A stretch of DNA of 64,000 bases from a virus, in UHGV virus genome UHGV-0125821; one strand, 5' to 3'. The translations under genes were made by a program, and so were the position numbers. This document shows positions 18,841 to 43,195 of the stretch, piece after piece (the stretch's first letter is position 1; the number at the start of each line of letters is the position of its first letter). The notes beneath the pieces were generated by a model. It had not been told where the DNA came from and ran no database searches. It was given only the letters and a program-made list of their open reading frames with translations.

Positions 18841-18876
18841 CAGATAAGGAGCGGCCCCAACTTGGGCCGAATTTGA

Positions 18877-19311
18877 ATGACGACATTAATTGACACTGTA
18901 AAACCGACGGAATCCTACCTTGAGGACATTTTGCCGCAGGCGCTCAATGGCAGGAGTGAAGAGGCGTTTCTGGATGCATATCTGAATGGCATGGTGGAAA
19001 GGCTGAAACGAGATCCACAGCTTTATCACCTTTATGGGCCGTGGTGGCCTGCGCTTAAAACGTTATTGCTGGAGCGCGGCGACATATCATTTGGACAAGT
19101 TGTAGATAGTGATGTGGCAGAGATCTACAAAATGAGTCGCCCGGCGCTTACGGTTTTGGCTGGGCATCTGTATTCGAGCGATCGCCTGGAAAATGACGCG
19201 GTATACAATCCTGTTCATGCTCTGGAAGTCGCACCTTATGCCGATGATACAGAGCCATACGTGTACATAAGTTACGACGAGTCTATAGAGAAATATCGAA
19301 TTATGGGGTAG
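18877..19311 (+). CDS. Hypothetical protein
   Basis: 144-aa ORF directly downstream of the darB-like gene. Confidence 0.5.
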   Translation: MTTLIDTVKPTESYLEDILPQALNGRSEEAFLDAYLNGMVERLKRDPQLYHLYGPWWPALKTLLLERGDISFGQVVDSDVAEIYKMSRPALTVLAGHLYSSDRLENDAVYNPVHALEVAPYADDTEPYVYISYDESIEKYRIMG

Positions 19312-20829: not shown

Positions 20830-22038
20830 ATGAGTCAACACACTGATACTTCTAATCTGGAAATTATCTCGACAGCAATTGAAACGCTGCGCACACAAAT
20901 CGCTCTTATACAGAAACGGAATCCGGGTGATGACCTGTCAAAGCGACTGCACGAGAGTGTCATTGCCACTACAGATAACCTGGTGGCGGAAATCAACAAG
21001 CTGCTTGATGATGGGGCAGTTGATTACAATAAGCTGGTGGATCAGTTTGAGGAATACCAACAAGCAGTTAATGATGGCTTGATCCGTTTTTCACAAGTCA
21101 CAGGCGTATCAGCGACAGTTGAAAGCCTGGGTGATGCAGTTAATCAATTTGCCGCGAATATGCGTAATGAGATCGGCAATCTGGAAGCGCGTCTTGAACA
21201 GGCAAATACACTGCGTAAATCTGCCGAAGCCGATTTGAACCGTTACAAAAAAGACTATCCGCCCAGCCTGACAAAGCGGCTGGATGTTGCGGAGAAGGAT
21301 AACCGCACGCTGAAAAGAGAGCGCCGGGAACTAAAAGAGCGTTTAACCAAGCTCAATCAGCAATGCATTGATTATCAAGGCGAAGGCGTCACACTGCGTA
21401 AAAAGTTGGCTACAGCGCAGAGCATTATCGAAACATTAAAGCGAGAGTGCTCACAGCTTGGTCACGATCTGAACCGTGCTTGTGGCATGGGACAAAGACC
21501 AGAGACATTTCCACTTATGTATGACGGAAGGGATGCCATTGCCTACATCCATGAGTATCCGCACGGCCTGGTTGCGGAAACTGGGCAGCGTGGCGAAGCA
21601 CTGCTGACGGCTAATTACCATCAACAAATCAGAACCAATCGCTTGTTAACGATGGATGTGATCCCATCGGTATGGGGAACGCCGCTTTACTATCGCCTGC
21701 CGGGCTTCGAAAAGGACTGGAATACCGACATAGACGAATGTCTCGCAGATAAAATTATGGCGTACCTGGAGACGGATTTTCCGCGCTTATATCGCCGGAT
21801 TATGGACTCTAAGGATGCGCCAATCGATGAATTAAAAATGCGTCCGGAGACGCTGGAGGCAATCAAGCAGACGGAGTTTGATACTGTATTCAGTGTGGCC
21901 TGCATTCCAAGCTGTTTCCATGAAAGCATTCCGTTCATGCAAGGAGATCGTCGTCAGGAAATCATTGACGCTTGCCGGGTATGGGCGAACGAATGGGATA
22001 AGAAGAATGGGGGTGTAGAAGATCTTTACGGGAAATAA
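20830..22038 (+). CDS. Hypothetical protein with N-terminal coiled coil
   Basis: 402-aa ORF bracketed by operator-like motifs at both ends. Confidence 0.6.
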   Translation: MSQHTDTSNLEIISTAIETLRTQIALIQKRNPGDDLSKRLHESVIATTDNLVAEINKLLDDGAVDYNKLVDQFEEYQQAVNDGLIRFSQVTGVSATVESLGDAVNQFAANMRNEIGNLEARLEQANTLRKSAEADLNRYKKDYPPSLTKRLDVAEKDNRTLKRERRELKERLTKLNQQCIDYQGEGVTLRKKLATAQSIIETLKRECSQLGHDLNRACGMGQRPETFPLMYDGRDAIAYIHEYPHGLVAETGQRGEALLTANYHQQIRTNRLLTMDVIPSVWGTPLYYRLPGFEKDWNTDIDECLADKIMAYLETDFPRLYRRIMDSKDAPIDELKMRPETLEAIKQTEFDTVFSVACIPSCFHESIPFMQGDRRQEIIDACRVWANEWDKKNGGVEDLYGK

Positions 22039-22054
22039 TGTGTTAGAAATCTAA
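22039..22054. promoter_or_regulatory. Operator-like motif TGTGTTAGAAATCTAA
   Basis: Core GTTAGAA immediately followed by TCTAA; right after the 20830-22038 stop. Confidence 0.35.
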
Positions 22055-22196
22055 AATCACAATTCGAATGTATTGATTGTGAGGGTAACTTAACATAGAA
22101 TTTTCCTTGCTGGTGGGCGGTACCCACGTTTCGCTTGCTGGGCTTGATAGTCACTTATTGGTTATTGTTCGCCCACCAGCATTTAACAAATTAAAG

Positions 22197-22209
22197 TGTT
22201 AGAAAAATA
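22197..22209. promoter_or_regulatory. Operator-like motif GTGTTAGAAAAAT
   Basis: Same core as the other copies. Confidence 0.35.
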
Positions 22210-22547
22210 TAGTAACGCAAGAGCACGCTTTGGCACCGTGCAGGCCAAAGTTCAGCAGGTTTAGTGCGGAAAGTGGTTTCAGAGAGAGCACTTTGCGGAG
22301 TAAACGACAATACATGTTGAGCCACGGAAGGTCTTTTTAAGGTGTTCATTGATGATGGTCCGGCAGAGAGTAACGGTACATGCTGCATCTAATCATCAAT
22401 GCACATCTTCAACATTAAGGAGGCATAGGGATTTTTGTGGCGGTTACCTTTTGCCCTGAGTCTCCTTAATGTTGCAGTAATGCACCTATGCGGATGTGGC
22501 CTTGCATTGTGTCTTGAAAGAATGGGGTAAGGCCGGGGATATCCCCA

Positions 22548-23272: not shown

Positions 23273-23348
23273 GATGGTGTAGCTCAGCGGTTAGAGCGGT
23301 TGACTGTTAATCAACGGGTCGATGGTTCAAATCCATCCACCATCGCCA
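23273..23348 (+). tRNA. tRNA-Asn (anticodon GTT)
   Basis: Manual fold: 7-bp acceptor GATGGTG/CACCATC, D-arm GCTC..GAGC, anticodon loop CTGTTAA, T-arm GATGG-TTCAAAT-CCATC, 3-prime CCA. Confidence 0.9.
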
Positions 23349-23350: not shown

Positions 23351-23426
23351 GCCGGTTTAGCTCAGTTGGTAGAGCGCCTGCCTTGTAAGCAGGATGTCAG
23401 CGGTTCGAGTCCGTTAACCGGCACCA
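23351..23426 (+). tRNA. tRNA-Thr (anticodon TGT)
   Basis: Acceptor GCCGGTT/AACCGGC, anticodon loop CTTGTAA, T-loop TTCGAGT, 3-prime CCA; 2 nt after tRNA-Asn. Confidence 0.9.
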
Positions 23427-23847: not shown

Positions 23848-23934
23848 GGAGAGTAGGGAGCATGGTGCTCAAACGGTCTTGAAAACCGTCCCATTGCGCA
23901 AGCGATGATGGTTCGATTCCATTACTCTCCGCCA
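23848..23934 (+). tRNA. tRNA-Ser-like gene (anticodon TGA, long variable arm)
   Basis: Manual fold: acceptor GGAGAGT/ACTCTCC, anticodon stem ACGGT/ACCGT with loop CTTGAAA, 4-bp variable-arm hairpin, T-arm GATGG-TTCGATT-CCATT, discriminator G and CCA; D-arm short (3 bp). Confidence 0.45.
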
Positions 23935-24157: not shown

Positions 24158-24197
24158 CACCGCAGCTTTTTTATTCGTTAAATAATGGAGTGAGAGG

Positions 24198-24434
24198 ATG
24201 CAGAACAATCCGAACAAATGTCGAACGCTATGGGTGCGGTTATATATTTATGTCGCCCTCTGTTTGATTGTGTCACTGGTTCTGTATGTTTGGCTTTTGC
24301 CAAATATGATCTCATCTGACAGCACAATACTTGTATTGTTGGGAGTCCTTCTCGCGCTCATTTACCCGGCTTTTGCAGTAGTCTTTTTTCGTGAAAAAAC
24401 CAGGAAATTGATTAATGAAAAAAACGTTGATTAG
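24198..24434 (+). CDS. Small integral membrane protein
   Basis: 78 aa with two hydrophobic helices; overlaps the start of the downstream SPFH gene. Confidence 0.4.
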   Translation: MQNNPNKCRTLWVRLYIYVALCLIVSLVLYVWLLPNMISSDSTILVLLGVLLALIYPAFAVVFFREKTRKLINEKNVD

Positions 24435-25221
24435 TGCAGCGATTATTTTTGGTTCTTTATGTCTGACCGGATGCGACCGGGTAGAACCAGGCAATGTAGG
24501 GATCAAAGTAAATAAGCTGGGGGATGATAAAGGTGTCGGCGAAGTAGTTGGCGTTGGTCGCTACTGGACAGGCTGGAACACAGAAGTTTATATCTTCCCG
24601 ACCTTTAAGCAAATGAAGACCTATGATGATCCGTTCAGCTTCCAAATGAGCGACGGGACAACAATTGGTTACCACATTGGTGTAGCTTACAAGGTTGATC
24701 CGGCAAAAGTCACAACTGTATTTCAGACCTACCGCAAAGGCGTGGATGACATTACCGACACTGACCTGCGCCAGAAGATCGCCGATGCACTCAACCGACT
24801 GGCCAGCAAAATGACCACCGATAAGTTTATCGACGGTGGTAAGTCTGAACTGCTGGATTCAGCACTTAAAGATATTCAGGAAGAGATGACCCCCATCGGC
24901 ATTCAGGTCATGAGCCTCTCTTATGTCGGTAAACCGGAATATCCGCCAACCGTTATCGACAGCATTAATGCAAAAGTCACGGCGAACCAGAAAACTCTGC
25001 AACGCGAAGCAGAAGCCAACATGCTGCGCGCAGAAGCTGCCGGACAGGCCGATGCCATTCGCACAAAAGCCCAGGCTGAAGCTGATGCCATTCGTTTACG
25101 CGGTGAGGCTCTGCGCCAGAACCCCGGCGTTATGGAGTTGGAAGCGATCAACAAATGGAACGGAACGCTACCGCAGTATATGACCAGTAATACCGCTGTT
25201 CCGTTTGTTCCGGTGAAATAA
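24415..25221 (+). CDS. SPFH/band-7 (prohibitin/HflC-like) domain lipoprotein
   Basis: Lipobox LTGC in the signal peptide; SPFH-type core and Ala/Glu-rich C-terminal helix (AEANMLRAEAAGQADAIRTKAQAEADAIR). Confidence 0.65.
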   Translation: MKKTLISAAIIFGSLCLTGCDRVEPGNVGIKVNKLGDDKGVGEVVGVGRYWTGWNTEVYIFPTFKQMKTYDDPFSFQMSDGTTIGYHIGVAYKVDPAKVTTVFQTYRKGVDDITDTDLRQKIADALNRLASKMTTDKFIDGGKSELLDSALKDIQEEMTPIGIQVMSLSYVGKPEYPPTVIDSINAKVTANQKTLQREAEANMLRAEAAGQADAIRTKAQAEADAIRLRGEALRQNPGVMELEAINKWNGTLPQYMTSNTAVPFVPVK

Positions 25222-25375
25222 CCAAATAGATAACATGATGGAATTTTGGACGTTTGCCGACAAGAACCCTTGGTGGACATTTTTATTTCTGCTGGTGGTT
25301 GCATATGGGGTCGAGCAAGCAGCAAAAGCCTTACGCGGTCCTGGCAAAAAGCGTAAGCGGAATTAACAGTAATCT

Positions 25376-25451
25376 GGCCCTTTAGCTCAGTGGTTAGAGC
25401 AGGCGACTCATAATCGCACGGTCACCGGTTCAAATCCGGTAGGGGCCACCA
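25376..25451 (+). tRNA. tRNA-Ile (anticodon CAT, lysidine type; tRNA-Met not excluded)
   Basis: GGCCCTTTAGCTCAGTGGTTAGAGCAGGCGACTCATAATCGC... closely resembles E. coli ileX/ileY tRNA; 3-prime CCA encoded. Confidence 0.85.
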
Positions 25452-26982: not shown

Positions 26983-27375
26983 ATGGAACAAATCAGCAGC
27001 GCAGAAATTGCGGATATCATGATCAGGGCTGACTGCTATCTGACAGTCACTGAAATTACCACTCTCGCCAAAGAAAAATACCCTCATCTCCATGTTTCAC
27101 GAGTAAGTGTAACTAACATCATTCGTCATTTTGTTCGTTCAAGCAGGGCAATCTGTGAGCTTGATGATCGTGTTTACCCACGAAAATACTGGTTGCATGG
27201 CCTGAACGGATATCAGTTCAAGGTGCGTGGGCGAACCCCTGAATATGGCAGTTTACTGGTTAAAAACTGTAGCAGGAAATCAGTCGAACAGGCGCGAAAA
27301 GAGCAACGAGAGCTGGTGGACATGGCGAATAAGCTGTGGAATGCCGCCGTTATAAAGCGTGGTGTTGCTTTATGA
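26983..27375 (+). CDS. Late-promoter-activator-position protein (Lpa-like, by position upstream of pacA)
   Basis: 130-aa ORF whose stop overlaps the pacA ATG (ATGA); operator-like motif upstream. No sequence recognition. Confidence 0.4.
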   Translation: MEQISSAEIADIMIRADCYLTVTEITTLAKEKYPHLHVSRVSVTNIIRHFVRSSRAICELDDRVYPRKYWLHGLNGYQFKVRGRTPEYGSLLVKNCSRKSVEQARKEQRELVDMANKLWNAAVIKRGVAL

Positions 27376-28736
27376 GTCTGGTTAATTGGGAGGAGCACCG
27401 CGCCCGCTTTATAGCGTTGCGTGAAGAAAAAGGGATCACTGTAAAGGAATACTGTGAGGAGCATGGCCTTAGCTTCAATACAGCCAGAAAGCATCTCAAT
27501 ATGAAAAAAAATGAGGTGCGGTCGCAGGTAAAGACAACAAAAAAAAGCACCAAATCACCTGAAAAAAAACGGGCGGGAAGAGCAACAAAAAAGCTGGAAG
27601 AGGGTGTAGAAAAAACAAAATTTACAGAAATTGACAATTCGCAGGGCGCAGGTTCTTTCCGAAGTATGCCGAGAAAGAAAACTTCGGATCATGAAAATAA
27701 TTCAAATAATAACAATAAGATAAAAGAATCTGTCAGGAGATCATTGCGCGAAAAAATGGCGAAAATGATCCCCGAAGAAGATAAAAACGCCCCAAAAATT
27801 GAGGGATCTTCTGCAATGATCCATGACGGTGCTGTGCAGCGAGCCACATTGCCAACTACGAATGTGGCTCGCGATATGATGAAGAACGGCGCAGAAGAAC
27901 ACCTGCGGTTAGCAATTCAAATGGCGCAAGAGCGCGCACTTCAGTATCAAAGCATTGTTGATCAGGAGGCCGAACGTCTACAGGCGGAAATAGACGCCTT
28001 GGGCGATAAAGAGCCAGAAGGAATGCACCCTGGGCAGCGCCTTCTCGGTCTAATCAGTGACGCGGCCTACTACATGAATGATTTTATCAGTAGGTTGGCA
28101 GCTATATATCAGTCCGAACAAAAGCTGCGACAGGGGGATGAAAAGCTTCGTCAGAGCGCTCGCCAGCAAGCATTCAAAGAGGCTGAGGCCAGAGAAAAAC
28201 TCGAATTAGCACGCCTACAGGCCGAACAGCGTGGCAAAGAGATTGAATATCGCATTGGCGCTGACGCACGCGCAGCCAGAGTTATCGCCGCCGCTATACG
28301 TATGCGTGAGCGCGAGGAACTGGATGATATCGGTGTTGCTGAATACATCGAGCGCCAGGGTGTCAGCGTCCCGGCTATCCTCGCGGCGCGCGCGGCGAAA
28401 GCTATCACTCTTCTCGAACCACCTGTTTCTGACGTCAATGATGTTGATGATGAACAGCTGGACAAAGAGGCAAGGGAGTTTGCAACGCTTCAGGCTAACC
28501 ATCCGCAATGGCTGGCAGAGCGCCGGGCGGATGTGGCAACCATTGTTGAAGAATTGGGGTGCGGAGATTACGACCGCAATGGCGAGCGTAAAGCTGGAGA
28601 ATTCGAGGCCAACGACGAAGAGCTGGATATTGACCCTTCGGCAACGGCTGAAATTTACGGTGATTATGATGCATCTGATGCAGGGTATGACGCCGGAGAT
28701 GATGATATCGCGATAGAACCGCCGGAGGATGATTAA
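27372..28736 (+). CDS. pacA: Terminase small subunit, P1 PacA-like
   Basis: Begins MSLVNWEEH; immediately upstream of and coupled to a clear PacB homolog; Lys-rich linker then acidic C-terminus. Confidence 0.75.
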   Translation: MSLVNWEEHRARFIALREEKGITVKEYCEEHGLSFNTARKHLNMKKNEVRSQVKTTKKSTKSPEKKRAGRATKKLEEGVEKTKFTEIDNSQGAGSFRSMPRKKTSDHENNSNNNNKIKESVRRSLREKMAKMIPEEDKNAPKIEGSSAMIHDGAVQRATLPTTNVARDMMKNGAEEHLRLAIQMAQERALQYQSIVDQEAERLQAEIDALGDKEPEGMHPGQRLLGLISDAAYYMNDFISRLAAIYQSEQKLRQGDEKLRQSARQQAFKEAEAREKLELARLQAEQRGKEIEYRIGADARAARVIAAAIRMREREELDDIGVAEYIERQGVSVPAILAARAAKAITLLEPPVSDVNDVDDEQLDKEAREFATLQANHPQWLAERRADVATIVEELGCGDYDRNGERKAGEFEANDEELDIDPSATAEIYGDYDASDAGYDAGDDDIAIEPPEDD

Positions 28737-30244
28737 TGGCTGGCGGGCGCAAGATTAAATGCGTCACCAGAGATCCACGCTGGCGCGATATGGTAATCAA
28801 ATACCGCTACAACTTTACCCAGGCTGTTGTCGATATTTTTGGGATGTTCCCCTCCCAGCAGCAGCAGCAGATCATTCAGTCCGTACAGGAAACGGGGAGT
28901 AGGACTACCGTCACGTCCGGACACGGAACGGGGAAGTCGTCCCTTACCGCGATGTTGCTGTTGATTTTTATGATCCTGTTCCCCGATGCCCGTGTCATCA
29001 TTGTTGCTAACAAGATAGGCCAGGTAAAAACAGGCGTATTCAAATACGTTAAACAGTATTGGGCGAATGCAGTTAAGCGTCATGGGTGGTTGCAGACCTA
29101 TTTTGTCCTCTCTGACACCATGTTTTATGAGCGCTCCCGTAAGGGGATTTGGGAAGTTCTCTGCAAAGGTTATCGACTCGGCAACGAAGAAGCGCTGGCG
29201 GGGGAACACGCGGCACATTTGCTTCTAATTCTGGATGAAGCATCTGGTATATCTGATAAGGCGATCGGCGTAATGACCGGTGCTCTTACTGAAGAAGATA
29301 ACCGGATGTTGATGCTATCCCAGCCAACAAGGCCAAGTGGTTATTTCTACGATTCGCACCATTCTCGAGCAAAAACCCCAGACAACCCGAAAGGGATCTG
29401 GACAGCAATTGTTCTTAACTCGGAAGAATCACCGTTCGTCACACCACAATTCATCAAGGAGAAGCTTCTGGAATATGGCGGGCGCGATTCTATTGAGTAC
29501 ATGGTCAAGGTGCTTGGTCAGTTCCCACGAGAAATTAACGGCTATTTGCTTGGTCGTGATGAATGCGATCGCGCTGCTCGCCGCAAGGTGTTGTTGGAGA
29601 AAAACTGGGGATGGGTGGCAACGGCTGACGTTGGTAATGGGCGAGATAAGTCGGTCCTCAACATCTGCAAGGTATCAGGTCACAGGGATAAGCGGCGCGT
29701 TGTTAACTTTAAGGTAATGGAGATGCCTGGCACTATGGACCCATTGGCCTTTGCTGACTTCATATATAACGAATGTACGCCGGAAAAATACCCGAATATA
29801 ACAATCGCGGTTGATGCTGATGGTTTTGGTTCTGATACGTGTGCGCAGTTGGTGCGTCGTGGTGCGAACCCGGTACGTATTCGGTGGGGAAAACCCATGT
29901 TTGCGAACAAAGACAGGGAGCGATTTGTTAATCAGCGTGCCTACGCAAATATTATGGCGCGTGATGCCATAAAGTCAGGGCGTATGCGGATAGACAGTGA
30001 CCCTAAAACGGCAGAGCAAGCGTCAAAAATCCCCTTTTTACTGAATGAAGAAGGGAAAATGGCGATGATGCGCAAAGAGCACATGCGGCAAAAGCTAAAC
30101 ATCAAATCGCCTGACCGATGGGATACCTACTGCTTCACTATGCTGGTGGACTATGTGCCTGCTAATGAAGATATTGGTGCCGAAATGGCAACTTTCCGAG
30201 ATCAGGTTCTGGCGGATATCGAAATGCCGGATCTGGATATATAA
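28736..30244 (+). CDS. pacB: Terminase large subunit, P1 PacB-like
   Basis: 502 aa; terminase ATPase Walker A TSGHGTGKSS and Walker B LLLILDEASG motifs; overall match to my recollection of P1 PacB. Confidence 0.85.
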   Translation: MAGGRKIKCVTRDPRWRDMVIKYRYNFTQAVVDIFGMFPSQQQQQIIQSVQETGSRTTVTSGHGTGKSSLTAMLLLIFMILFPDARVIIVANKIGQVKTGVFKYVKQYWANAVKRHGWLQTYFVLSDTMFYERSRKGIWEVLCKGYRLGNEEALAGEHAAHLLLILDEASGISDKAIGVMTGALTEEDNRMLMLSQPTRPSGYFYDSHHSRAKTPDNPKGIWTAIVLNSEESPFVTPQFIKEKLLEYGGRDSIEYMVKVLGQFPREINGYLLGRDECDRAARRKVLLEKNWGWVATADVGNGRDKSVLNICKVSGHRDKRRVVNFKVMEMPGTMDPLAFADFIYNECTPEKYPNITIAVDADGFGSDTCAQLVRRGANPVRIRWGKPMFANKDRERFVNQRAYANIMARDAIKSGRMRIDSDPKTAEQASKIPFLLNEEGKMAMMRKEHMRQKLNIKSPDRWDTYCFTMLVDYVPANEDIGAEMATFRDQVLADIEMPDLDI

Positions 30245-30271: not shown

Positions 30272-31309
30272 TTACCAGAGCTTCGCGGCGTACTGCGTTT
30301 GGGGGAATGTGTATCCGTAACGTTCTTCGATTGCTTTGCCGTATTTTTTACGAGCTTCATTCAGTTTAATGCCGGTCAGGTCGTCTCCAGAGGCCATCAT
30401 TACGTCTAACAATTCCAGATCCATTTTATCCAGCCTTGCCATTGCTTCACGTGATGTACGTATCTTACGCTCAATGATATGGCGAATAGCCGGATCGGCA
30501 TCCTCCAGCATCTTAGCGGATTTCTGCTTAAGGCTTTCATTGCGAATATCGATGTTCCTTAAGATGTACGACTTCGCAACGTAGCTTGGCTGGTGTTTTT
30601 CCAGGTCACGAACACGATATAAGTTAAAATCGCCGAGAAGGCTGCAAGGTACCGATTCGACGCCAGAATAAATTGTAATGCTCCGGCGTTCACCAACATT
30701 ATTGACAACGGGGATCGTTGTCTTCGGTAGTCTTGCGAAAACCAATGCACCATGTGCGCCAACTCTAAAGCGAGAAAGGGCATTGCTGCCTTCGATGTTT
30801 GTTGTCAGCACAACATCTGTATATGCCTCTTTACGCGCCCGGTAGATCTCGCCTTCAGGCTCAGCTTCAAAGAAGCGCTGTTCTTCTTCAAGATCGCCTA
30901 CGATTTGAGAAAAAACCCTATTTTTCAGGCTTTTCTTTATGATTTTGTCGTATTTTTTTAGCAATTGTTCACGTGTAAATGTACGTGTTGTTGTAGCGCT
31001 TTGCACAACGACATGCGTGCTTTGATTGGTGTCCTCAATGATGAATGGGATCGGAGAATATACAGACTCAACAATGTTCGACGCTTTGCCGTCGGCATCG
31101 CGGCACATGTCAACGAAGGCTTTCCATTCAGCAAGACATTTTTCAGCTTCTTCTAATATGTTTTGGTCATGCGTTAATGCAACATGGCGGAATTCCTCGC
31201 CAGCATAACTGGTATCATGGAAAACAGAGTTTGCGACCACCAGCTCTTTCCACCGTTCAGCGGTTTGCAGGAACCGTTTGTACTCTTTCTCGATCGACTT
31301 CTTACTCAT
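30272..31309 (-). CDS. Hypothetical protein in the c1 position (candidate C1-type immunity repressor)
   Basis: 345-aa ORF between pacB and rox/dre, where c1 lies in P1; operator-like motif 13 nt upstream of its start; sequence not recognised. Confidence 0.5.
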   Translation of the reverse strand: MSKKSIEKEYKRFLQTAERWKELVVANSVFHDTSYAGEEFRHVALTHDQNILEEAEKCLAEWKAFVDMCRDADGKASNIVESVYSPIPFIIEDTNQSTHVVVQSATTTRTFTREQLLKKYDKIIKKSLKNRVFSQIVGDLEEEQRFFEAEPEGEIYRARKEAYTDVVLTTNIEGSNALSRFRVGAHGALVFARLPKTTIPVVNNVGERRSITIYSGVESVPCSLLGDFNLYRVRDLEKHQPSYVAKSYILRNIDIRNESLKQKSAKMLEDADPAIRHIIERKIRTSREAMARLDKMDLELLDVMMASGDDLTGIKLNEARKKYGKAIEERYGYTFPQTQYAAKLW

Positions 31310-31321
31310 TATTCCTACTCG

Positions 31322-31338
31322 ATTTAGTTTTCTAACAT
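31322..31338. promoter_or_regulatory. Operator-like motif ATTTAGTTTTCTAACAT at the 5-prime end of the c1-position gene
   Basis: Exact shared 15-mer; position suggests autoregulation. Confidence 0.45.
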
Positions 31339-31520
31339 AAAATTACTATGACAAATTTATGTCGAATAACAGAGTGAGTAAAGGATCGAACTGTGATTTT
31401 TTGTCATCAATTTTAGAAAACCAACCGTAGAAACCACACTTCGCAAATTAAAGACCATGAAGGCAACGTGTTACTGGTCATCATCAATCTATGATGGGTT
31501 AAAAAAAAATCGGCATTTTA

Positions 31521-31552
31521 TAACTTTAAATAATTGGCATTATTTAAAGTTA
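31521..31552. other. rox site (Dre recombinase target), 14-bp inverted repeats around a 4-bp spacer
   Basis: TAACTTTAAATAAT-TGGC-ATTATTTAAAGTTA is the reverse orientation of the rox sequence as I recall it; it can also be read as a 34-bp lox-like site with 13-bp arms; about 150 bp upstream of dre. Confidence 0.85.
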
Positions 31553-31704
31553 GGCTATAATCATGTGTAGATGAACAGTATTGACATCACTGAAAATACG
31601 TACCTCGAATCAAAGGCTTGTATTTTGAAAATTAACTTATAGCTACCCTGTCATTTTTATATTTTTCGCGTAGCATCATCTGTATATAGAGGTGAAATAG
31701 TTTC

Positions 31705-32733
31705 ATGAGTGAATTGATTATCTCTGGCAGTTCCGGTGGTTTTCTGCGCAACATTGGCAAAGAGTACCAGGAAGCCGCAGAAAACTTTATGCGGTTCATG
31801 AATGACCAGGGGGCTTATGCGCCGAATACTCTGCGCGACCTCCGGTTGGTGTTTCATTCCTGGGCGCGCTGGTGTCACGCTCGCCAGCTTGCCTGGTTTC
31901 CGATCTCACCAGAAATGGCCCGCGAGTATTTTCTTCAGTTGCATGATGCCGATCTGGCTTCGACCACCATTGATAAGCACTACGCCATGCTTAACATGCT
32001 GCTTTCTCATTGTGGCCTTCCGCCACTTTCGGATGATAAAAGTGTTTCTCTGGCTATGCGGCGTATCCGGCGCGAAGCGGCAACGGAAAAAGGCGAACGA
32101 ACAGGCCAGGCTATACCGCTGCGATGGGACGACCTGAAACTGCTCGACGTCCTGTTGTCCAGGTCAGAACGGCTGGTGGACCTGCGCAACCGGGCTTTTC
32201 TCTTTGTTGCATACAATACGCTGATGCGTATGTCGGAAATCTCGCGTATTCGTGTAGGAGATCTGGACCAAACAGGTGACACCGTCACGCTACATATTTC
32301 ACACACGAAGACAATAACGACCGCCGCCGGGCTTGATAAGGTGCTTTCCCGTCGCACTACTGCTGTGCTGAATGACTGGCTGGATGTTTCCGGGCTTCGT
32401 GAACATCCTGACGCGGTGCTGTTCCCGCCGATACACCGTAGCAATAAGGCCAGGATTACGACAACGCCCCTTACTGCACCTGCAATGGAGAAAATATTCA
32501 GCGACGCCTGGGTGTTGCTGAATAAAAGGGATGCCGCGCCAAACAAAGGGAGATACCGGACGTGGACCGGGCATAGTGCTCGTGTCGGGGCCGCTATCGA
32601 TATGGCTGAAAAGCAGGTGTCTATGGTGGAGATCATGCAGGAAGGAACCTGGAAGAAACCGGAAACACTTATGCGGTATCTGCGCCGTGGCGGTGTGTCT
32701 GTGGGGGCTAATAGCCGCTTGATGGATTCGTAG
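31705..32733 (+). CDS. dre: Tyrosine site-specific recombinase, Cre family (Dre-like)
   Basis: 342 aa; aligns with Cre across conserved blocks (FLFVAYNTLMRMSEISRIRVGDL versus Cre FLGIAYNTLLRIAEIARIRVKDI; WTGHSARVGAAIDMA); adjacent rox site. Confidence 0.9.
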   Translation: MSELIISGSSGGFLRNIGKEYQEAAENFMRFMNDQGAYAPNTLRDLRLVFHSWARWCHARQLAWFPISPEMAREYFLQLHDADLASTTIDKHYAMLNMLLSHCGLPPLSDDKSVSLAMRRIRREAATEKGERTGQAIPLRWDDLKLLDVLLSRSERLVDLRNRAFLFVAYNTLMRMSEISRIRVGDLDQTGDTVTLHISHTKTITTAAGLDKVLSRRTTAVLNDWLDVSGLREHPDAVLFPPIHRSNKARITTTPLTAPAMEKIFSDAWVLLNKRDAAPNKGRYRTWTGHSARVGAAIDMAEKQVSMVEIMQEGTWKKPETLMRYLRRGGVSVGANSRLMDS

Positions 32734-32734
32734 A

Positions 32735-32750
32735 TTAAATTTCTAACACA
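32735..32750. promoter_or_regulatory. Operator-like motif TTAAATTTCTAACACA
   Basis: Immediately after the dre stop and upstream of the next operon. Confidence 0.4.
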
Positions 32751-32806
32751 TCTTTTTAGATTGATGTCTTTGCTGTAAAGTACCCTCGCCTATTTCGGAG
32801 GGTGCT

Positions 32807-33151
32807 TTGCAGAGTCAAATCACGGAATCAAGACGCTTTAAGGTGGATGGTTACACCGTAACCTTCGCTGCTGGTGTTAAGAACAGTCATGCTGTCGTTG
32901 TATTCGGCATCATGACCGGGCTTGAGGCCGTCCCTGTGTTTACCCTCGAAAAAAACTGGCGAAATCTGGAGGAAGCAGAAAGCTACGTCCGGAAAGTAAC
33001 CATCATTGCCGCCGAAAAACTCCTGGCCCACTATCAGGAAAATTATCGCACTATGGTCGAGAAGATTAATCTCGCTTTCACTCGCCCCACTACCGGCTTT
33101 ATTGCACCGGATACTAATGCAGGTCGCTATCCTGCAAGGGGGCGTCGGTGA
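32807..33151 (+). CDS. Hypothetical protein
   Basis: 114-aa ORF (TTG start in track). Confidence 0.4.
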   Translation: MQSQITESRRFKVDGYTVTFAAGVKNSHAVVVFGIMTGLEAVPVFTLEKNWRNLEEAESYVRKVTIIAAEKLLAHYQENYRTMVEKINLAFTRPTTGFIAPDTNAGRYPARGRR

Positions 33152-34798: not shown

Positions 34799-35599
34799 GT
34801 GGAAAATACTAAAGCAATTCAATACCGCTTGCGTAATGGCCTGCTGGTGGCTGTGAACGCCGACATGTCACTGCCGTTTGACACGATTGAACGTACTATC
34901 ATGACGTATCTCGGCTTTAATGAAGAGCTGAATGAAGAGCATGGCGTAGCTATATGGAGTGATGCAGAAAGCGGCGTTCATCGTTACATCACCGCCAGGG
35001 GCAAAGACTACTCTCTGGAAGAACTGTTTACCCTTGCACAGTCTTTCGAATGTGTAGCATTAGACATGTTTAATGATCCTGCTATAGCGCAACGACTTAT
35101 ACGCGAGCTTGGGCTATCCGTTACACCAATTATCTTTAAGAATGGCAGCCTGACTGGCACATGGCGCGTAGAACGCATCTCAAACTACCTTCCATATAAC
35201 CGACAGTTAAATGGAGTAATCTCCGGCGTTAATCAGCCCGTAGCGTGTGAAAATGTAAACCTGGTTGCCGCTGTTTTGGCAACCGCATGTCGTGTTATCG
35301 GTTTGGCTAAACAGGCATTTATTCATTTCCCAAATGGTGCAGAAGGTAGCGCAGAGATTATCGCGTGTGATTTCGAATTTACCTGGATGCTACGCGAATA
35401 TCTGGACCAAACAGTATTCCGTGCCGAAGAACTGGATATGTATATCACGTCAACGATTCCAGACGATGTGCGAGCTGAAGCAATCGCTACAGCCAGGGCG
35501 AAATGCCGTGCGGCGATTGCAGAGCAGGCCAAAGAAGAACCGTCCGATGAAGCCGTGGCTGATGTTGAAGCAGAGGTAGCGGAGGATGCTGACGCCTAA
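34799..35599 (+). CDS. Hypothetical protein
   Basis: 266-aa ORF (GTG start in track); acidic C-terminus. Confidence 0.5.
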   Translation: MENTKAIQYRLRNGLLVAVNADMSLPFDTIERTIMTYLGFNEELNEEHGVAIWSDAESGVHRYITARGKDYSLEELFTLAQSFECVALDMFNDPAIAQRLIRELGLSVTPIIFKNGSLTGTWRVERISNYLPYNRQLNGVISGVNQPVACENVNLVAAVLATACRVIGLAKQAFIHFPNGAEGSAEIIACDFEFTWMLREYLDQTVFRAEELDMYITSTIPDDVRAEAIATARAKCRAAIAEQAKEEPSDEAVADVEAEVAEDADA

Positions 35600-37339: not shown

Positions 37340-37438
37340 AGCGTTTTACCTCAATGATACTGTTTATTCATACAGTATACATTGAAAAGGCATAGTTTGT
37401 GAAAGCGGGGTTTGCAGGCGCGCCACGCTGGGGGCTAA

Positions 37439-37831
37439 TCACATTGGTGGCGTGAACTTGCCATTCATATATTGCAAAATGCTTGACTCAATTTTTTCAT
37501 TAAAATCAGAATGATGCTCCTCAAGGACAAAGCGCGCCTTATTGTTGCGCACAATAACCTCCGCCAACGGACTAACCAGAGATGTGGAGTTAGAGATTTT
37601 CTCGGCGCGCTCTACATCGCTTTTAAACGTTACGATGAAGTGCTGGTGGCCTGGTGACCGGCGACACAACATGCGTCGCACTTCCACGGTATCTTCACGG
37701 CCTTGAGTATGTACAGGAAAGCTATCGACCACCGCTGTATTGGTGCGGATTGTCTGCATAGAACGCGTGTTGTCGTGATAGTTAAGCATGTTTAATGTCT
37801 TCCCCATCTTGCCGTTATTTTCTTGGTGCAT
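37439..37831 (-). CDS. Hypothetical protein
   Basis: 130-aa ORF in the minus-strand operon. Confidence 0.4.
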
Positions 37832-38066
37832 CCTCGTTCTGATACACCGGATGGCTCCCTTTTGGCAACTGGAGGCTTAACTGCCGGTAGTGCCGTAACC
37901 GTTCCATGAAATAGGTGCGCAGGTTCTCTGGTTGCTCGCGGGCTACCTGTTCAGCCATGACAGGTATGTTCAATCGCTCTTTGTACGCCACACCGCTGGC
38001 AGCCAGATCAACGTTAACCTTATCCCGTTCTTCCTGACTTTTAGCTGCAATATTCCAGTCGCTCAT
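37815..38066 (-). CDS. Hypothetical protein
   Basis: 83-aa ORF. Confidence 0.4.
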
Positions 38067-38068
38067 AT

Positions 38069-38341
38069 TTAAGGCTCACATTTCCAGATGGTATTCTGAA
38101 CACCCGAACCGGGCGCAAGATTAGGGTTAGCGTTCGCGCTATGCTGATATACTGCTTTAGACTTCCCATATTGCTGACAGGCTTTATCTGCGGTTTTTTG
38201 CAGGCTATCCAGGCCATACCAACCATCTGACTGTATGCTTACCTTTTCACCGTCGTTGTATTGCACCATTGCACACCCAGATATAGCCAGTATCGCGCCG
38301 ACAATAACGCTTTTCCATAAAACTCTATGCAACATATACAA
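38069..38341 (-). CDS. Small lipoprotein
   Basis: 90 aa; signal peptide with lipobox AISGC. Confidence 0.5.
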
Positions 38342-38380
38342 AAATCCCCTCTGTGAATTGAGGGGATTTTAGCATGGTGA

Positions 38381-39211
38381 TCAGATATCGGCCTTATTCG
38401 GAATTTTATCAGCCACCAGCGGCAATAAAGCCTTCGCCATTTCATGAACCAACATGGCATCAATGACGCCTAGCGTATGGCCCGGCTTAATCTTTAATGC
38501 GGCCTCAAGATAGCCTCTTTCCAGAGTGGTTTTTACGCTTTTCTTGGGCGATTGTTGGGAACTATCCGGAAAATCCGGATGGTTGCCAGCCAGTCTACGC
38601 AAAACGGCCTTAACAGCCTCAATACGGTCATCATCGCAATTTTCCAGCGTATCTATGCGGTCGAGCATGATGATTGCGTTATCAATATCAGGATTGCCGG
38701 TCCACTCATTACCGCGATTGGATTCGGCAGCATGGTTGCCGCGTACTGGTTGATTCTCGGCTTTACCCTGTCTGTCGTCGCTGCATGAATGCCCTTCCAG
38801 CCAGGCCAATGCTTGTCGCATGAAATACGCAATATGTTTGCCGTGGTAATCGTCTTCATCGATGTGAAAAGCGATACTGCGGATGTATTCAATTGCGTTT
38901 TCAATGGCCTCCGGCGTTATCGGCGCTGGCGGTGCGGTATAAAACTTCGTCCCCAACGGCAACAACTTCATCGCTTTTTCTCCCTTAATGATGCGATAAG
39001 TTGATTTCCCGCCAAGGTCTACCGTCCCATCCATAACAAGGCCATGTTGCTTCTCTGAAACTTCACCAATAGGCTCTGCTTCCAGCGATGTCAGCGCAAT
39101 CCGCGCCAGTTCTTCCGCTTCTTCTGCTGGCAGTACAACGTTGCTACCAGGTCCGTATGTTTCGCGCCACTGCTTGATTGTCAGTAGTCGCTCTTTGGTT
39201 ATAGTGGTCAT
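38381..39211 (-). CDS. Hypothetical protein
   Basis: 276 aa; 4-nt overlap with the upstream gene. Confidence 0.5.
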   Translation of the reverse strand: MTTITKERLLTIKQWRETYGPGSNVVLPAEEAEELARIALTSLEAEPIGEVSEKQHGLVMDGTVDLGGKSTYRIIKGEKAMKLLPLGTKFYTAPPAPITPEAIENAIEYIRSIAFHIDEDDYHGKHIAYFMRQALAWLEGHSCSDDRQGKAENQPVRGNHAAESNRGNEWTGNPDIDNAIIMLDRIDTLENCDDDRIEAVKAVLRRLAGNHPDFPDSSQQSPKKSVKTTLERGYLEAALKIKPGHTLGVIDAMLVHEMAKALLPLVADKIPNKADI

Positions 39212-39489
39212 TTGTTAACCCTCAAAACTTTATGCCCGGGCGCAAAAGCACGCGTTTTGTCTTTGCTTATTCGCCAGCCATCCTTGCGCGCCTCTTTTGC
39301 ACAGCCAGCCCATGACGTACCTATATACTCACCGAAGTCTGGCACTGGATATACACCTTCCGTGCACTGACGGCAGTCACAATAGAGATGCATGGTGTAA
39401 CTTGCAGCGATAGCCATATCACTCTCCTTTAGTACGCAAGTGGTTTTTCCAGCGGTTTTGCGCCGCGCTGGGCTTTTTGCAAAAACCAC
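39208..39489 (-). CDS. Hypothetical Cys-rich small protein (start uncertain)
   Basis: YCDCRQCTEG and WAGC cysteines suggest a zinc-binding fold. Confidence 0.35.
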   Translation of the reverse strand: MVFAKSPARRKTAGKTTCVLKESDMAIAASYTMHLYCDCRQCTEGVYPVPDFGEYIGTSWAGCAKEARKDGWRISKDKTRAFAPGHKVLRVNK

Positions 39490-39593
39490 AATCCATCATC
39501 CCGTAATGTTTCATTAACCCCATCCGTCGGTTGCTGAGTCTCACCCACTGCCAGACGCCAGGAGCGTTTCTACGAACTAACAGAATCTTTGCT

Positions 39594-40346
39594 TTACGGT
39601 TTTTCATCGTTTTGCTCTCCTGCGTCTCCTTTGATGCAAATGCCAGCGACGCATGGCACATTAACTTCCACGATGCGCACAGTTGGTTTGTACATCTCAA
39701 TCGCTGTCAGCCAGTCAGCGCCAGTCATGCGCTTTTCTGCATCGCCATTAGTCCACTTAACCGGTACACCAATAGCCTTCATCGCGATTTCTATTTCCCC
39801 GGCGATGGCGCTTTTTCCGCAACCAGTAAAACCAGAAACAACGACAAGAACTTCACCTTTGGCTGGTTTTATTTCCCGTGCTTCCAGTTCTGCAATGCGC
39901 TTCTCTGCGGCTTCCAGCTTCTCGCGCATATCGTCAACGTACTCGACCAGAGAACCGCCAGCAGGAATTTCGCACTCCTCGACCAGTTGGAAGTAGATAT
40001 CAGCTGCGGCCCGTGTGTTGCTATGCCTAGCGTCGCCCATCTCACCTTCACGAAGAGCATCGCGTTCGGCGGTAAGATTGGCTATTTTGCTGTCTTTGCC
40101 TTCCAGCTCAACACGCAGCTTCCCTACCGTTAGCGCAATATCCTCGTTCTCCTGATCGCGGCTTTTGATGTATTGCAGGTTTCTTTCCCGTTCATCCAAC
40201 AATGCCAGCGCGATATCTGGCGAAAAGTGCTTCATAAAATCGTTAAGCGCATTAATTCGCTGATCGAAAGGCATTACAGGTGCTTCACCAGCAATTTTTG
40301 TTTTTTCAGCGATTTCACGAAGCTTTTGATAATCAATCTTGCTCAC
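39594..40346 (-). CDS. Paralog-family early protein with C-terminal P-loop NTPase-like domain
   Basis: GTG start after AAGGAGG; N-terminus SKIDYQKLREIAEK shared with three paralogs; Walker A-like GFTGCGKS. Confidence 0.5.
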   Translation of the reverse strand: MSKIDYQKLREIAEKTKIAGEAPVMPFDQRINALNDFMKHFSPDIALALLDERERNLQYIKSRDQENEDIALTVGKLRVELEGKDSKIANLTAERDALREGEMGDARHSNTRAAADIYFQLVEECEIPAGGSLVEYVDDMREKLEAAEKRIAELEAREIKPAKGEVLVVVSGFTGCGKSAIAGEIEIAMKAIGVPVKWTNGDAEKRMTGADWLTAIEMYKPTVRIVEVNVPCVAGICIKGDAGEQNDEKP

Positions 40347-40987
40347 TGGTTGCCTCCTTTGCGAAGCTGCTCCGCACAATGCAGCAGGGCGTCCGTCGCT
40401 TCTTTCACCGTAACGATGTCGCCATCGTCCAGCCCGGCAACCGTCGCGTCCTTAACGAACACCGAGCAAAGGTCATTAAACGCCTGCGCACGTACTTCAG
40501 CCAGGAGAGCGTCGGTGACCGGAGTTTCAGGAATCCGTCTCCTCATCCGTTCTATTGCATGATTGAACCCGAAATCTTCAGCAAGAGATACGTCATCCAT
40601 ATTGTCATTGTCGTCCTCAATATCCCGTGGTTCTGGAATTGCAGACTTTATTACCGCATTCTCCGCTGCTAGCGCCGCGCACTTGGCCTCAAGAGCGGCA
40701 ACCACTTCCTGATGGTCTTTGTACTTAACGTATGAGCCGGAGATGTCATCACCTTCGGTGTTTAGCCATGCGTCATTGCAATTCACTGCGTAGGTTCTGA
40801 TGCTCATGCTGATGCTCTCCCGCCCCTGACAGACGCCAGGCCAGTCAATAAAGTATCCGCAATGCCTACCCTCAGACGTGCGCGCAGGATAAATGCCGTT
40901 ATGACCCGGCAAAATATATGCTACCCATTCATCTTGCGTTGCCTGTTTCGCCGCCTCGCGCAGTTCTTTATAGTTAATTTCGCTCAC
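40343..40987 (-). CDS. Paralog-family early protein (Ea22-like organisation)
   Basis: N-terminus MSEINYKELREAAKQ and C-terminus LRKGGNQ shared with paralogs; near-identical gene junction repeated at 40340, 40975 and 45860. Confidence 0.5.
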   Translation of the reverse strand: MSEINYKELREAAKQATQDEWVAYILPGHNGIYPARTSEGRHCGYFIDWPGVCQGRESISMSIRTYAVNCNDAWLNTEGDDISGSYVKYKDHQEVVAALEAKCAALAAENAVIKSAIPEPRDIEDDNDNMDDVSLAEDFGFNHAIERMRRRIPETPVTDALLAEVRAQAFNDLCSVFVKDATVAGLDDGDIVTVKEATDALLHCAEQLRKGGNQ

Positions 40988-41223
40988 TGGTTGCCTCCTT
41001 TACGGATCTGCGCTGCGATGCGCGAAAAAAAAGACTCCCGCGTATGACTGTTAAGAGCTGGCGCGAACGCTGCGTTAAGAACAGCAGCATCACAGCCGTC
41101 ATCAATATAGAGCGCAATTTTTTTCTCCAGGCGCGCTTTGGCTTCCTGCAACTGCATACCCCGGCACGCACGCGGGATATAATCAGCAATTTGAGCGATA
41201 GCCTTTTCGTTCTGTTTAAACAT
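40984..41223 (-). CDS. Short paralog-family protein sharing the C-terminal IRKGGNQ module
   Basis: 79-aa ORF ending with the same motif and junction as its neighbours. Confidence 0.4.
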   Translation of the reverse strand: MFKQNEKAIAQIADYIPRACRGMQLQEAKARLEKKIALYIDDGCDAAVLNAAFAPALNSHTRESFFSRIAAQIRKGGNQ

Positions 41224-41419
41224 GCTTCACCTCGATAGGCTTGATGGTGTCTAACAGCAGTCGACGGCGCGTATTTTCTGCAAAGTGGCGGCGTCCGGTA
41301 TCTTTGTGGTAAAACTCATTTTTGCCGACGACCCACATCCGCTCTGTTTGGTGCAGTTTTTTTACCTGCGGACCGTCTTTGGTGATCACGGTGCCGGTAT
41401 GGGTTTTTACGATTGTCAT
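41216..41419 (-). CDS. Hypothetical small protein
   Basis: 67-aa ORF overlapping neighbours. Confidence 0.35.
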   Translation of the reverse strand: MTIVKTHTGTVITKDGPQVKKLHQTERMWVVGKNEFYHKDTGRRHFAENTRRRLLLDTIKPIEVKHV

Positions 41420-41502
41420 GCCACTACCTCTTCGAACAGATGAACGAGACAGGCCGATGCTCGTCCACCTAAAAAGCTGACGACTTGATGCATACTCACG
41501 GT

Positions 41503-42195
41503 TTATTCCTGAATGCGCTTAAACTCAATTACCCATACCCACGGGTTAGATAGCCAGTTATCCTGCCCGTAAATACTGCGCCAGATATCACCAAAACCAA
41601 CGCGATAAACAGCTTCCGGCGGTGTAATTTTGTACATCGCCGGAGATGCGCCTTCTGCTTTAGCATCTGCCTCGCTCATATCACGCAGCCGTTCCACACG
41701 CACGTCGGTAATTTCCAGCAAAATGCGCGATGCCCAGCGCGGCATGTGAATTGATGGACACCACCCGCCATCAAATTTTTCATTCACAGTGTGAGGTTTC
41801 CAGTCGGCATCATCGGGTATCGACCACAAGCCGTAATCACCCGGCTTTTGCTCACAACTGGCCCGATAAATCCTTGCTGCGTTCTTCTCATCGCCACGAC
41901 AAAGGTTGTCGTTCCAGTCCACACTGCAACCATCCTCATTGCCTAATATCGCCCACGCCTCACGGACCCATATGCGATCACCAACGTTACCGAACGGGCA
42001 TAAACCATGTTCAGGTGCATCCATAACGTGGGTATAGACACCATTGCGTTTCTTTGTCGGTTTACGGATAACCAGGCAGTTATCGGCCCTGACATTTTTT
42101 ACAGGTCGGCGAGTCTGCGTCTTCCTTCCTTCGAGGATGGCCCTGACCATCTCATCGTTAAAAATCATCCCGCGTTCTTTCATTTTTTGATCCAC
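41503..42195 (-). CDS. ASCH-like domain phage protein (tentative)
   Basis: N-terminal MIFNDEMVRAILEGRKTQTRR and GDRIWVREAW resemble ASCH-fold prophage proteins. Confidence 0.4.
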   Translation of the reverse strand: MDQKMKERGMIFNDEMVRAILEGRKTQTRRPVKNVRADNCLVIRKPTKKRNGVYTHVMDAPEHGLCPFGNVGDRIWVREAWAILGNEDGCSVDWNDNLCRGDEKNAARIYRASCEQKPGDYGLWSIPDDADWKPHTVNEKFDGGWCPSIHMPRWASRILLEITDVRVERLRDMSEADAKAEGASPAMYKITPPEAVYRVGFGDIWRSIYGQDNWLSNPWVWVIEFKRIQE

Positions 42196-42199
42196 CTCA

Positions 42200-43195
42200 T
42201 CAGTTATTGAAAGTGATCACTCCGCGCTCGATGGCGAAGTCAAAAAGCTGGTTAGCGGCTACGTAAAGGCGTATGCCATGTGCTTTTTCCCATGCCCGAA
42301 CATCGTTTTCTGCGCTTCTGGCGCAGTCATCGCAAAGAGGAACAGCCCAGCGGTCGTGTTCGTTTAACGAGCGGGCGCGGTACATGAACGGGTGGTTAAC
42401 TTTGCCACCGCATCCGATGCACGGACGAGAAACCACAAACCGGAGATAAGCCGGGCTTTTACCGAGGACCGCTTTTGGTCGGCGCATATAAAGCAGACCG
42501 GAATCCTCATCTACAGACAGGTTGACGATCTGCTCTGCGGTTATGTCCACCAGCTCACGGGTGCTGTGCTCCCAGGTGATATCTGATTCTTTCAGCGTAC
42601 CGGTAGGGATTTCAGTTTTTGGCTGACAAAATGCAATGCGACCGGCTTCATCTGGCAGCTCATCTTTCAGATTCCGGCGAATGGCCCAAAAAGTGAGTTC
42701 AACCATGCTCAGATCGCGTTCTGGCGGTAGTTTTAACTCGCTCGCAGCCCAGTTCATAACCCAGTTGGCACGATTCAGGGATAACTGGTCGTCCAGCTTG
42801 CTGTACCCCTTCATCATGTATTCCGCATCATGCTTCCAGCACAGGCGAACGGCAGAGCCGTTATAGAAATGGGTGGTTAGCTGGTGGCTGCAATCGCGCT
42901 TATCGTGCGCCTGGCAATCGTGGATATTGGAACTTACCCAATGAACAAGCGAATCTTCACCGCCCAACGCGTTAAATACGCGCTCGCTTTGAAAAAACGG
43001 TTTCAGAGACTGGTTGGCAACCAGCGAATAATTCAGATCCACTACGCCATCTGGCGTGTTTTCAGCCTGTTCACGCGGAAGTGGGGAGATAATGAAACGG
43101 CGACCTGCGCCAATGTAGTTGCTGGTGGGCTTGTCTACCGGAAAGACAGCCACACCAGCTCCGTTTACGAAATGAGGTGTGATTATTGCACTCAT
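42200..43195 (-). CDS. Hypothetical protein with C-terminal Cys-rich zinc-binding-like motif
   Basis: 331 aa; CIGCGG...PLCDDC near the C-terminus; first gene after the bivalent operator. Confidence 0.5.
   Translation of the reverse strand: MSAIITPHFVNGAGVAVFPVDKPTSNYIGAGRRFIISPLPREQAENTPDGVVDLNYSLVANQSLKPFFQSERVFNALGGEDSLVHWVSSNIHDCQAHDKRDCSHQLTTHFYNGSAVRLCWKHDAEYMMKGYSKLDDQLSLNRANWVMNWAASELKLPPERDLSMVELTFWAIRRNLKDELPDEAGRIAFCQPKTEIPTGTLKESDITWEHSTRELVDITAEQIVNLSVDEDSGLLYMRRPKAVLGKSPAYLRFVVSRPCIGCGGKVNHPFMYRARSLNEHDRWAVPLCDDCARSAENDVRAWEKAHGIRLYVAANQLFDFAIERGVITFNN

Follow-up and report, generated by a model that had tools for sequence, protein, structure and literature searches.

The rox site, the dre gene and the surrounding genes

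The window, that is, the whole stretch of 64,000 nucleotides of the virus genome UHGV-0125821 that was analysed, contained a rox recombination site at position 31521–31552, followed by the dre gene at 31705–32733 (+ strand, including the stop codon), which encodes a tyrosine recombinase of 342 aa. On the other side of the site, a c1-type prophage repressor gene of 345 aa was present at 30272–31309 on the − strand, divergent from dre; the homologous coding sequence in the D6 record AY753669 is annotated as phage repressor protein C1. The start codon of c1 was found 211 bp from rox, and the distance between rox and dre was 152 bp, the same as in the D6 GenBank record, where the orientation is also the same.

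Read on the + strand, the site consisted of TAACTTTAAATAAT-TGGC-ATTATTTAAAGTTA, with the c1-side arm at 31521–31534, the asymmetric spacer TGGC of 4 bp at 31535–31538 and the dre-side arm at 31539–31552. The two 14-bp arms were perfect reverse complements of each other. Read on the − strand, the site matched the published 32-bp rox, TAACTTTAAATAATGCCAATTATTTAAAGTTA, at 32 of 32 positions with no mismatch, and was thus identical to the wild-type 32-mer as printed by Chuang et al. (2015; PMC4777119), where the 14-4-14 architecture of rox and the active-site residues of Dre are also given. It was likewise base-for-base identical to nucleotides 4909–4940 of AY753669.1, annotated as misc_recomb ("region of crossover (rox) site for Dre recombinase"), and lay on the same strand relative to dre. 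PMC4777119 and the GenBank annotation of D6 were our sources for the published facts on rox and Dre. The 32-mer TAACTTTAAATAATGCCAATTATTTAAAGTTA was unique in the 64-kb window, no further match appeared when up to 3 mismatches were allowed, and 100 dinucleotide-preserving shuffles gave 0 matches, none being expected by chance. A sequence-only reading of the same DNA had taken the 32-bp palindromic site for rox, and this identification was borne out by both sources; the span that it gave, 31521–32733, was exact, beginning with the first base of rox and ending where the stop codon of dre ends. It had further described the site as lying in reverse orientation, which is right in that the − strand corresponds to the usual print of rox, but this is a matter of printing convention only; relative to dre, the site is oriented as it natively is in D6.

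The dre gene was preceded by a Shine-Dalgarno-like GAGGTG at 31689–31694 (+), read from the sequence 10 nt upstream of the ATG. A terminator scan 3' of dre called none, and a weak hairpin without a T-run was present at about 32782–32803. The protein contained a Phage_integrase domain (PF00589, 5e-17, 62.6 bits, the cutoff being 27.1) and, more weakly, an N-terminal SAM-like domain. The best matches among solved structures were all Cre, with 1nzb_A at E 5.3e-69 over residues 22–341. Alignment with Cre, translated from the P1 record, showed 41.9% identity, and all seven catalytic residues were kept: R175, E178, K202, H290, R293, W316 and Y325 of Dre align with R173, E176, K201, H289, R292, W315 and Y324 of Cre, and the same catalytic residues are given for Dre in PMC4777119. 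The earlier description of the adjacent 342-aa protein as a Cre homolog was therefore correct.

The Dre protein was identical at 341 of 342 residues to the D6 Dre of both available records (AY753669/AAV84949.1, annotated as "dre: tyrosine recombinase" at 5093–6121, and MF356679/ASR76376.1, translated), and the gene differed from D6 dre at 8 of 1029 nucleotides. The pairwise alignment with published Dre and rox that had been proposed as a check thus gave 341/342 and 32/32, and not a distant similarity. The only residue that differed was alanine 278, which is a threonine in D6. Since one residue separates this protein from the characterised enzyme, the allele could in principle be inactive or shifted in specificity, with the module decaying or recognising some other site. 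We consider this very unlikely. The open reading frame was intact with its catalytic residues in place, and residue 278 falls within a loop where Dre and Cre differ by an indel of 3 residues. Exactly this A278 protein was encoded by 99 public contigs; it belongs to a cluster of 845 members at 90% identity, which bear names from E. coli and Salmonella. Both A278 and T278 are natural, and a perfect rox adjoined A278 in several independent genomes and T278 likewise. There was no sign of loss of function in the A278 protein, and the allele is probably active.

Immediately beyond c1 were the terminase genes pacA and pacB, both on the + strand and both found at the offset that corresponds to the D6 annotation. 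For pacA, the longest open reading frame was 27336–28736, with the D6-equivalent ATG at about 27372; pacB occupied 28736–30244 and showed 45–66% amino acid identity to P1 pacB by tblastx. The pac cleavage sites annotated in P1 (90804–90813) are about 4 kb away from lox; if pac lies within pacA here as it does in P1, rox would be about 3–4 kb from pac. A P1-type pac, that is, a cluster of TGATCA/G hexamers, was sought in the pacA of the window and was not found, only 1 hexamer being present, whereas the same search showed the expected 4+3 hexamer cluster in P1 pac. The window pacA contained a loose cluster at 27661–27840 with five GATC in 160 bp. Downstream of dre were two unnamed open reading frames, dut, another open reading frame and isaA. 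The order c1 (−), rox, 152 bp, dre (+), orf, orf, dut was present in every related locus examined, and the c1 equivalents in the related loci L005–L012 matched PF27008, Phage_P7_repressor_C1.

Relation of the element to D6 and P1

Since 2004, the year of the original Dre/rox paper (Sauer and McDermott 2004), the system has served as a standard tool in genome engineering. The genome of D6 has been published already, and plasmid prophages of the D6 type are known to occur commonly in both E. coli and Salmonella.

In the megablast search of 31300–33000 against phage records, only D6 was found (the immC region AY753669.1 and the genome MF356679.1/NC_050154.1), at 98.9% identity over 1.7 kb. When the whole window was aligned to D6 MF356679 by blastn, 58,696 of the 64,000 bases aligned in one collinear series in reverse orientation, with long blocks of 94.9–98.0% identity, mostly 95–98%. 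The alignment ran straight across the linearisation point of the D6 record, which falls in the middle of rox. The window itself is a fragment without ends and is continuous across rox, which, like the plasmid location of most relatives, is consistent with a plasmid. About 5.3 kb of the window, for example 24165–25233, 37436–38405 and 40358–42197, was without a D6 counterpart; these segments encoded an SPFH/Band 7 lipoprotein, Ead/Ea22-like proteins and small unknowns, and they were found in other D6-like plasmids. A PADLOC scan of the open reading frames in these segments showed no known defence proteins.

A match was found in 144 PLSDB plasmids, for the most part non-mobilisable, about 90 kb in size and from Escherichia, Salmonella and Shigella, and in 124 of 5,426 complete E. 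coli genomes, where 124 of the 127 places were on plasmids. Over 24000–46500, the best PLSDB record was CP042632.1, an E. coli plasmid of 94.7 kb from a pig, which covered 94% of this region at 98.9% identity. Plasmid prophages such as CP042632.1 and pYU39_89 (CP011430) are the same type of element as the window, about 90 kb in size and with the same recombinase and site. Their differences from the window were those of the usual variable early-region and cargo genes, and nothing identical to it was found among the phage records, PLSDB, the E. coli genomes, the 21 IMG/VR contigs with an exact rox and the contigs that encode the exact protein. Such plasmid prophages are a described population in Salmonella Typhimurium ST213 (PMC6799933). 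The D6 annotation contains the plasmid maintenance and addiction genes phd/doc, a parA-like gene and repL.

Dre belongs to the PF00589 family, and 3 of the 127 places in complete E. coli genomes were chromosomal, so the recombinase might be thought of mainly as an integrase that inserts the element into the host chromosome at a rox-like site and not as an enzyme of resolution or cyclisation. This has a very slim chance of being right, given the 124 places on plasmids of about 90 kb, the maintenance genes of D6 listed above, the published description of D6-like elements as plasmid prophages (PMC6799933) and the site itself, which is of a simple symmetric 14-4-14 type like loxP and is without arm-type sites.

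The closeness to D6 raised the question of whether the window is phage D6 itself, for which the dre region (98.9% over 1.7 kb to D6 as the best phage match) and the collinear gene order would speak. With D6, the window shared rox at 32/32, Dre at 341/342, the 152-bp spacing, the orientation and the neighbours (c1; orf117, orf116 and dut). The differences, however, were T278A, the 8 nucleotides in dre, present against both D6 records, the roughly 5.3 kb of replaced or inserted DNA and the 95–98% identity of most of the rest, where about 100% would be looked for; CP042632.1, moreover, was closer than D6 over 24000–46500. The alignment of the whole window to the D6 genome refuted this identity. 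The window is a D6-like element, probably a plasmid prophage, and an ordinary member of its population, not D6 itself.

An engineered origin of Dre and rox has next to no chance of being right, although both are common in synthetic vectors and the exact 32-mer is found in engineering papers. The window contained a single rox (even with 3 mismatches allowed) in the native c1-rox-dre context, the upstream region and the codons of dre are the native ones, the 8 nucleotides at which the gene departs from D6 are natural differences, and all around it are 64 kb of collinear phage-plasmid genome. The same allele was present on 99 contigs from natural isolates.

The sequence-only reading held that Dre and an exact rox fix the lineage. 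The lineage is indeed D6-like, but an exact rox alone is not sufficient for this, because it also adjoins Dre orthologues of 94% identity whose flanks are only about 80% identical. The lineage is fixed by the whole-window alignment.

The P1 comparison covered nucleotides 1–50000 and 90500–94800 of P1 (NC_005856.1). Only about 3 kb of the window aligned to the compared parts at the nucleotide level, including cin (window 1–618) at 97%; the remaining similarity was 30–68% at the amino acid level, and the order and the orientation of the blocks differed. Window 1–5800 corresponded to P1 32275–26228 (inverted), 6021–7511 to 17435–18934 (direct) and 12277–19254 to 16981–10058 (inverted), followed by pacB (28750–30214 to 91721–93191), cre (31771–32274 to 499–999), isaA (34886–35523 to 21854–22491), ref (47799–48135 to 2289–2625) and mat (50978–51436 to 2983–3441). 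In P1, c8, ref and mat come directly after cre, whereas the ref and mat homologues of the window were about 16 and 19 kb from dre. The window therefore bears the mosaic relation to P1, with a different gene order, that had been read from its sequence, and the D6 annotation already records such a relation. Over the compared parts of P1, both nucleotide similarity and gene order argue against membership in Punavirus (P1 proper), to which the window probably does not belong.

The likeness to the Cre/loxP system of P1 extended from the protein (the same fold family, the same catalytic residues, 41.9% identity) to the position of the site, which in both cases has the c1 immunity region on one side and the recombinase gene on the other, is about 4 kb away from pacA/pacB and has the same orientation relative to the gene; read from c1 to cre, lox is also the reverse of the usual print of loxP. 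The outer arm bases TAACTT...AAGTTA are common to loxP and rox. However, loxP is built as 13-8-13 and rox as 14-4-14 (PMC4777119). In P1, coi, imcB and imcA lie between c1 and lox, and the 418 bp from lox to cre contain cra and three annotated cre promoters, with P4cre upstream of lox; in the D6 type, the distance is 152 bp, cra is absent and the −35 of a predicted promoter falls within the site. Dre/rox and Cre/loxP are described as heterospecific in the literature.

The native module and its inferred role

The rox site and the Dre protein of the window have the identity of the characterised pair and stand in the native arrangement and in a D6-like context. Taking these observations together, we conclude, with a probability of about 0.95, that 31521–32733 is the native Dre/rox recombination module of a D6-like phage-plasmid of Enterobacteriaceae, a prophage that is probably kept as a circular plasmid. 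The catalytic mechanism and the biological roles described below are put forward by homology with Cre/lox.

By this homology, each 14-bp arm of rox would be bound by one Dre monomer, and two rox sites would come together in a synapse as a tetramer. Tyr325 would then cleave the DNA, forming a 3'-phosphotyrosine intermediate, and the strands would be exchanged via a Holliday intermediate around the asymmetric centre of the site, with accessory factors probably not needed. In the prophage, such a reaction would resolve plasmid multimers to monomers and would allow the faithful partition of a low-copy element; in pYU39_89, a D6-like plasmid, multimer resolution is the function assigned to this recombinase together with its site (PMC6799933). 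On infection, linear and terminally redundant DNA could be cyclised by Dre whenever rox is contained in the redundancy. The cyclisation of P1 DNA by Cre-lox is stated in PMC3973344. That rox lies within the terminal redundancy of the first headful is suggested by analogy with P1, because the P1-type pac cluster was not found in the pacA of the window.

The module is already known and is ordinary biology, as the sequence-only reading also judged: Dre/rox is in use as a tool, the D6 genome is published and the D6-like population has been described. Its practical value is that of an anchor, through which the window was identified as a D6-like phage-plasmid, so that the annotation of MF356679 can be carried over to its remaining parts.

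Natural rox variants and a predicted promoter overlapping the site

The variation of rox in nature was examined in 44 loci, which were obtained from IMG/VR scans for the exact rox sequence and for a degenerate pattern of it, and from the contigs encoding the exact Dre protein. The canonical rox was found in 26 of the 44 loci. In 12 loci, the A nucleotide at position 9 of the c1-side arm was substituted by a G (A9G), the adjacent Dre being 89–100% identical. The spacer was GGGG in 1 locus (adjacent Dre 99.1%) and TAGC in 1 locus (adjacent Dre 70%), and 4 loci contained AAACTTTAAATAAT-AAAC/ACCC-ATTATATAAAGTTT next to a Dre of about 55% identity. The A9G sites and the rare spacers GGGG and TAGC may act as naturally heterospecific or asymmetric sites.

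In the relatives, identity to the window was 92–99% over the 100 bp that flank rox towards dre, and in many loci it fell to about 60% over the 100 bp towards c1; this discontinuity was sharp and was located exactly at rox. The A9G arm variant was always accompanied by the divergent c1-side flank, the half-sites of rox segregating with their flanks.

A break of this kind is as would be expected of crossover in the spacer between heteroimmune relatives in nature, and a hypervariable c1 control region that ends at rox would look similar. The flanks suggest that in nature, where relatives share a host cell, immunity regions may be shuffled between them through exchange mediated by Dre.

A promoter scan predicted a sigma-70 promoter into dre at 31534–31561 (+), with 11 of 12 consensus positions. 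The predicted −35, TTGGCA at 31534–31539, lies within rox and covers the spacer; after a gap of 16 bp follows the predicted −10, TATAAT at 31556–31561, which begins 3 bp beyond rox. No other match in the 64-kb window, on either strand, reached 11/12, and about one per window is expected at random, so that the existence of the match is not significant in itself and it is its position that is suggestive. The TATAAT was found at the same offset in all examined Dre orthologues of 70–100% identity, though the adjacent bases vary, and it was not present in the homologues of about 55% identity. The annotated cre promoters of P1, by comparison, do not overlap lox.

If the promoter is real, one would expect it to be blocked whenever Dre occupies rox, and the transcription of dre would thereby be shut off. 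A literature search on autoregulation of Dre at rox returned nothing relevant. These points can be combined into one reading, in which a promoter autoregulated by Dre is built into rox, the natural variants are possibly heterospecific or asymmetric and exchange mediated by Dre shuffles immunity regions; taken as a whole, it is tentative, and we regard it as possible though rather doubtful. If it holds, the occupancy of the site would be coupled to the supply of the enzyme in an autoregulatory loop of the resolvase style, for which P1 cre/lox carries no such annotation, and the embedded promoter together with the heterogeneity of natural sites would be of modest interest. For recombinase engineers and for the study of phage-plasmid evolution, the natural rox variants next to near-identical Dre proteins and the conserved predicted promoter overlapping rox are of minor value.

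Variation of rox and the mosaic boundary

The rox site of the window (31521–31552, minus strand) was found to vary in nature. Among the 44 tabulated loci, which comprised IMG/VR matches to rox or degenerate rox and contigs encoding the exact Dre of the window, 12 contained G instead of A at the 9th position of the c1-side arm (A9G; L007, L010, L011, L036, L039, L041, L043, L044, L046, and L048–L050), and the adjoining Dre proteins were 89–100% identical. The spacer was substituted by GGGG in a single locus (L047; adjoining Dre 99.1%) and by TAGC in another (L038; 70%). The form AAACTTTAAATAAT-AAAC/ACCC-ATTATATAAAGTTT was present in L037, L040, L042, and L045, where it adjoined Dre homologues of approximately 55% identity.

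The flanks of rox were compared between the window (31421–31520 on the c1 side, 31553–31652 on the dre side) and the public loci L007–L050. An abrupt mosaic boundary falls precisely on rox: the dre-side flank of 100 bp shared 92–99% identity with the window in many relatives whose c1-side flank of equal length shared only approximately 60%. The A9G arm co-occurred with the alternative c1-side flank in every case. This linkage and the drop in flank identity at rox would fit heteroimmune D6-like elements having undergone site-specific exchange at the rox spacer. The c1-rox-dre region was found twice in one assembly, contig UGFE01000007.1 (GCA_900450295.1, 265 kb), the two copies (L005 and L006) lying approximately 94 kb apart. 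This has the look of a circular plasmid of approximately 94 kb assembled as a concatemer, and not of a true duplication.

A predicted dre promoter overlapping rox

A sigma-70 promoter directed into dre (31705–32733, plus strand) was predicted at 31534–31561 (plus strand), with 11 of 12 consensus positions. The -35 element, TTGGCA, is contained in rox, where it spans the spacer; the -10 element, TATAAT, lies outside rox, 3 bp past its end. No other sequence in the 64-kb window scored 11/12 or higher; about one such match is expected there at random, so the position of this predicted promoter rather than its existence is of note. The TATAAT element kept a constant offset across all examined Dre orthologues of 70–100% identity, and the bases beside it were variable. 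The annotated cre promoters of P1 do not overlap lox, whereas the predicted dre promoter of the D6-type window overlaps rox. The arrangement suggests that Dre bound to rox may repress its own gene.

Modules compared with P1 and D6

The cin invertase region (1–618) was 97% identical to P1 cin at the nucleotide level, whereas the neighbouring genes showed merely 30–68% protein identity to P1. Judged from sequence, cin is a recently exchanged mosaic module common to the P1 and D6 lineages. The pac site of P1 contains 4+3 TGATCA/G hexamers within pacA. No such cluster was found at the equivalent pacA position of the window (27661–27840), which contained five GATC sites in a looser cluster with flanking bases unlike those of P1; the pac site of D6-type elements therefore appears to be distinct from the P1 site.

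Rfam identified two distinct C4 antisense-RNA immunity modules on the plus strand, corresponding to the two annotated icd/antirepressor gene pairs of D6. The first (9952–10158) contained the c4-a1b1 targets (9952–10004) and C4 RNA (10073–10158), and the second (48685–48897) an isrK-like sRNA match (48685–48763) and C4 RNA (48810–48897). ARAGORN found four plus-strand tRNA genes: tRNA-Asn-GTT (23273–23348), tRNA-Thr-TGT (23351–23426), tRNA-Ser-TGA (23848–23934), and tRNA-Met-CAT (25376–25451). The corresponding D6 region is 6084–7850 of MF356679, a record in which three of the four are annotated, on the strand opposite to the ARAGORN and Rfam calls; tRNA-Met, corresponding to D6 6084–6159, is not annotated there.

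The segment 24165–25233 had no D6 counterpart. It encoded a predicted membrane protein of 78 aa (24198–24434) and an SPFH/Band 7 lipoprotein-like protein of 268 aa (24415–25221; Pfam PF01145, 3e-30), neither of which was matched by PADLOC. An annotated "SPFH domain-containing protein" was also present inside the matched region of other D6-like plasmids. The early-region genes at 37436–42197 were replaced relative to D6. Two Ead/Ea22-like proteins (39594–40379 and 40343–40987, both minus strand), a weakly matched ASCH-like ORF of 230 aa (41503–42195), and several small ORFs without family assignment were found here, adjoined by a DUF968 protein (42200–43195). The replaced region resembles the variable cargo typical of D6-like phage-plasmids.
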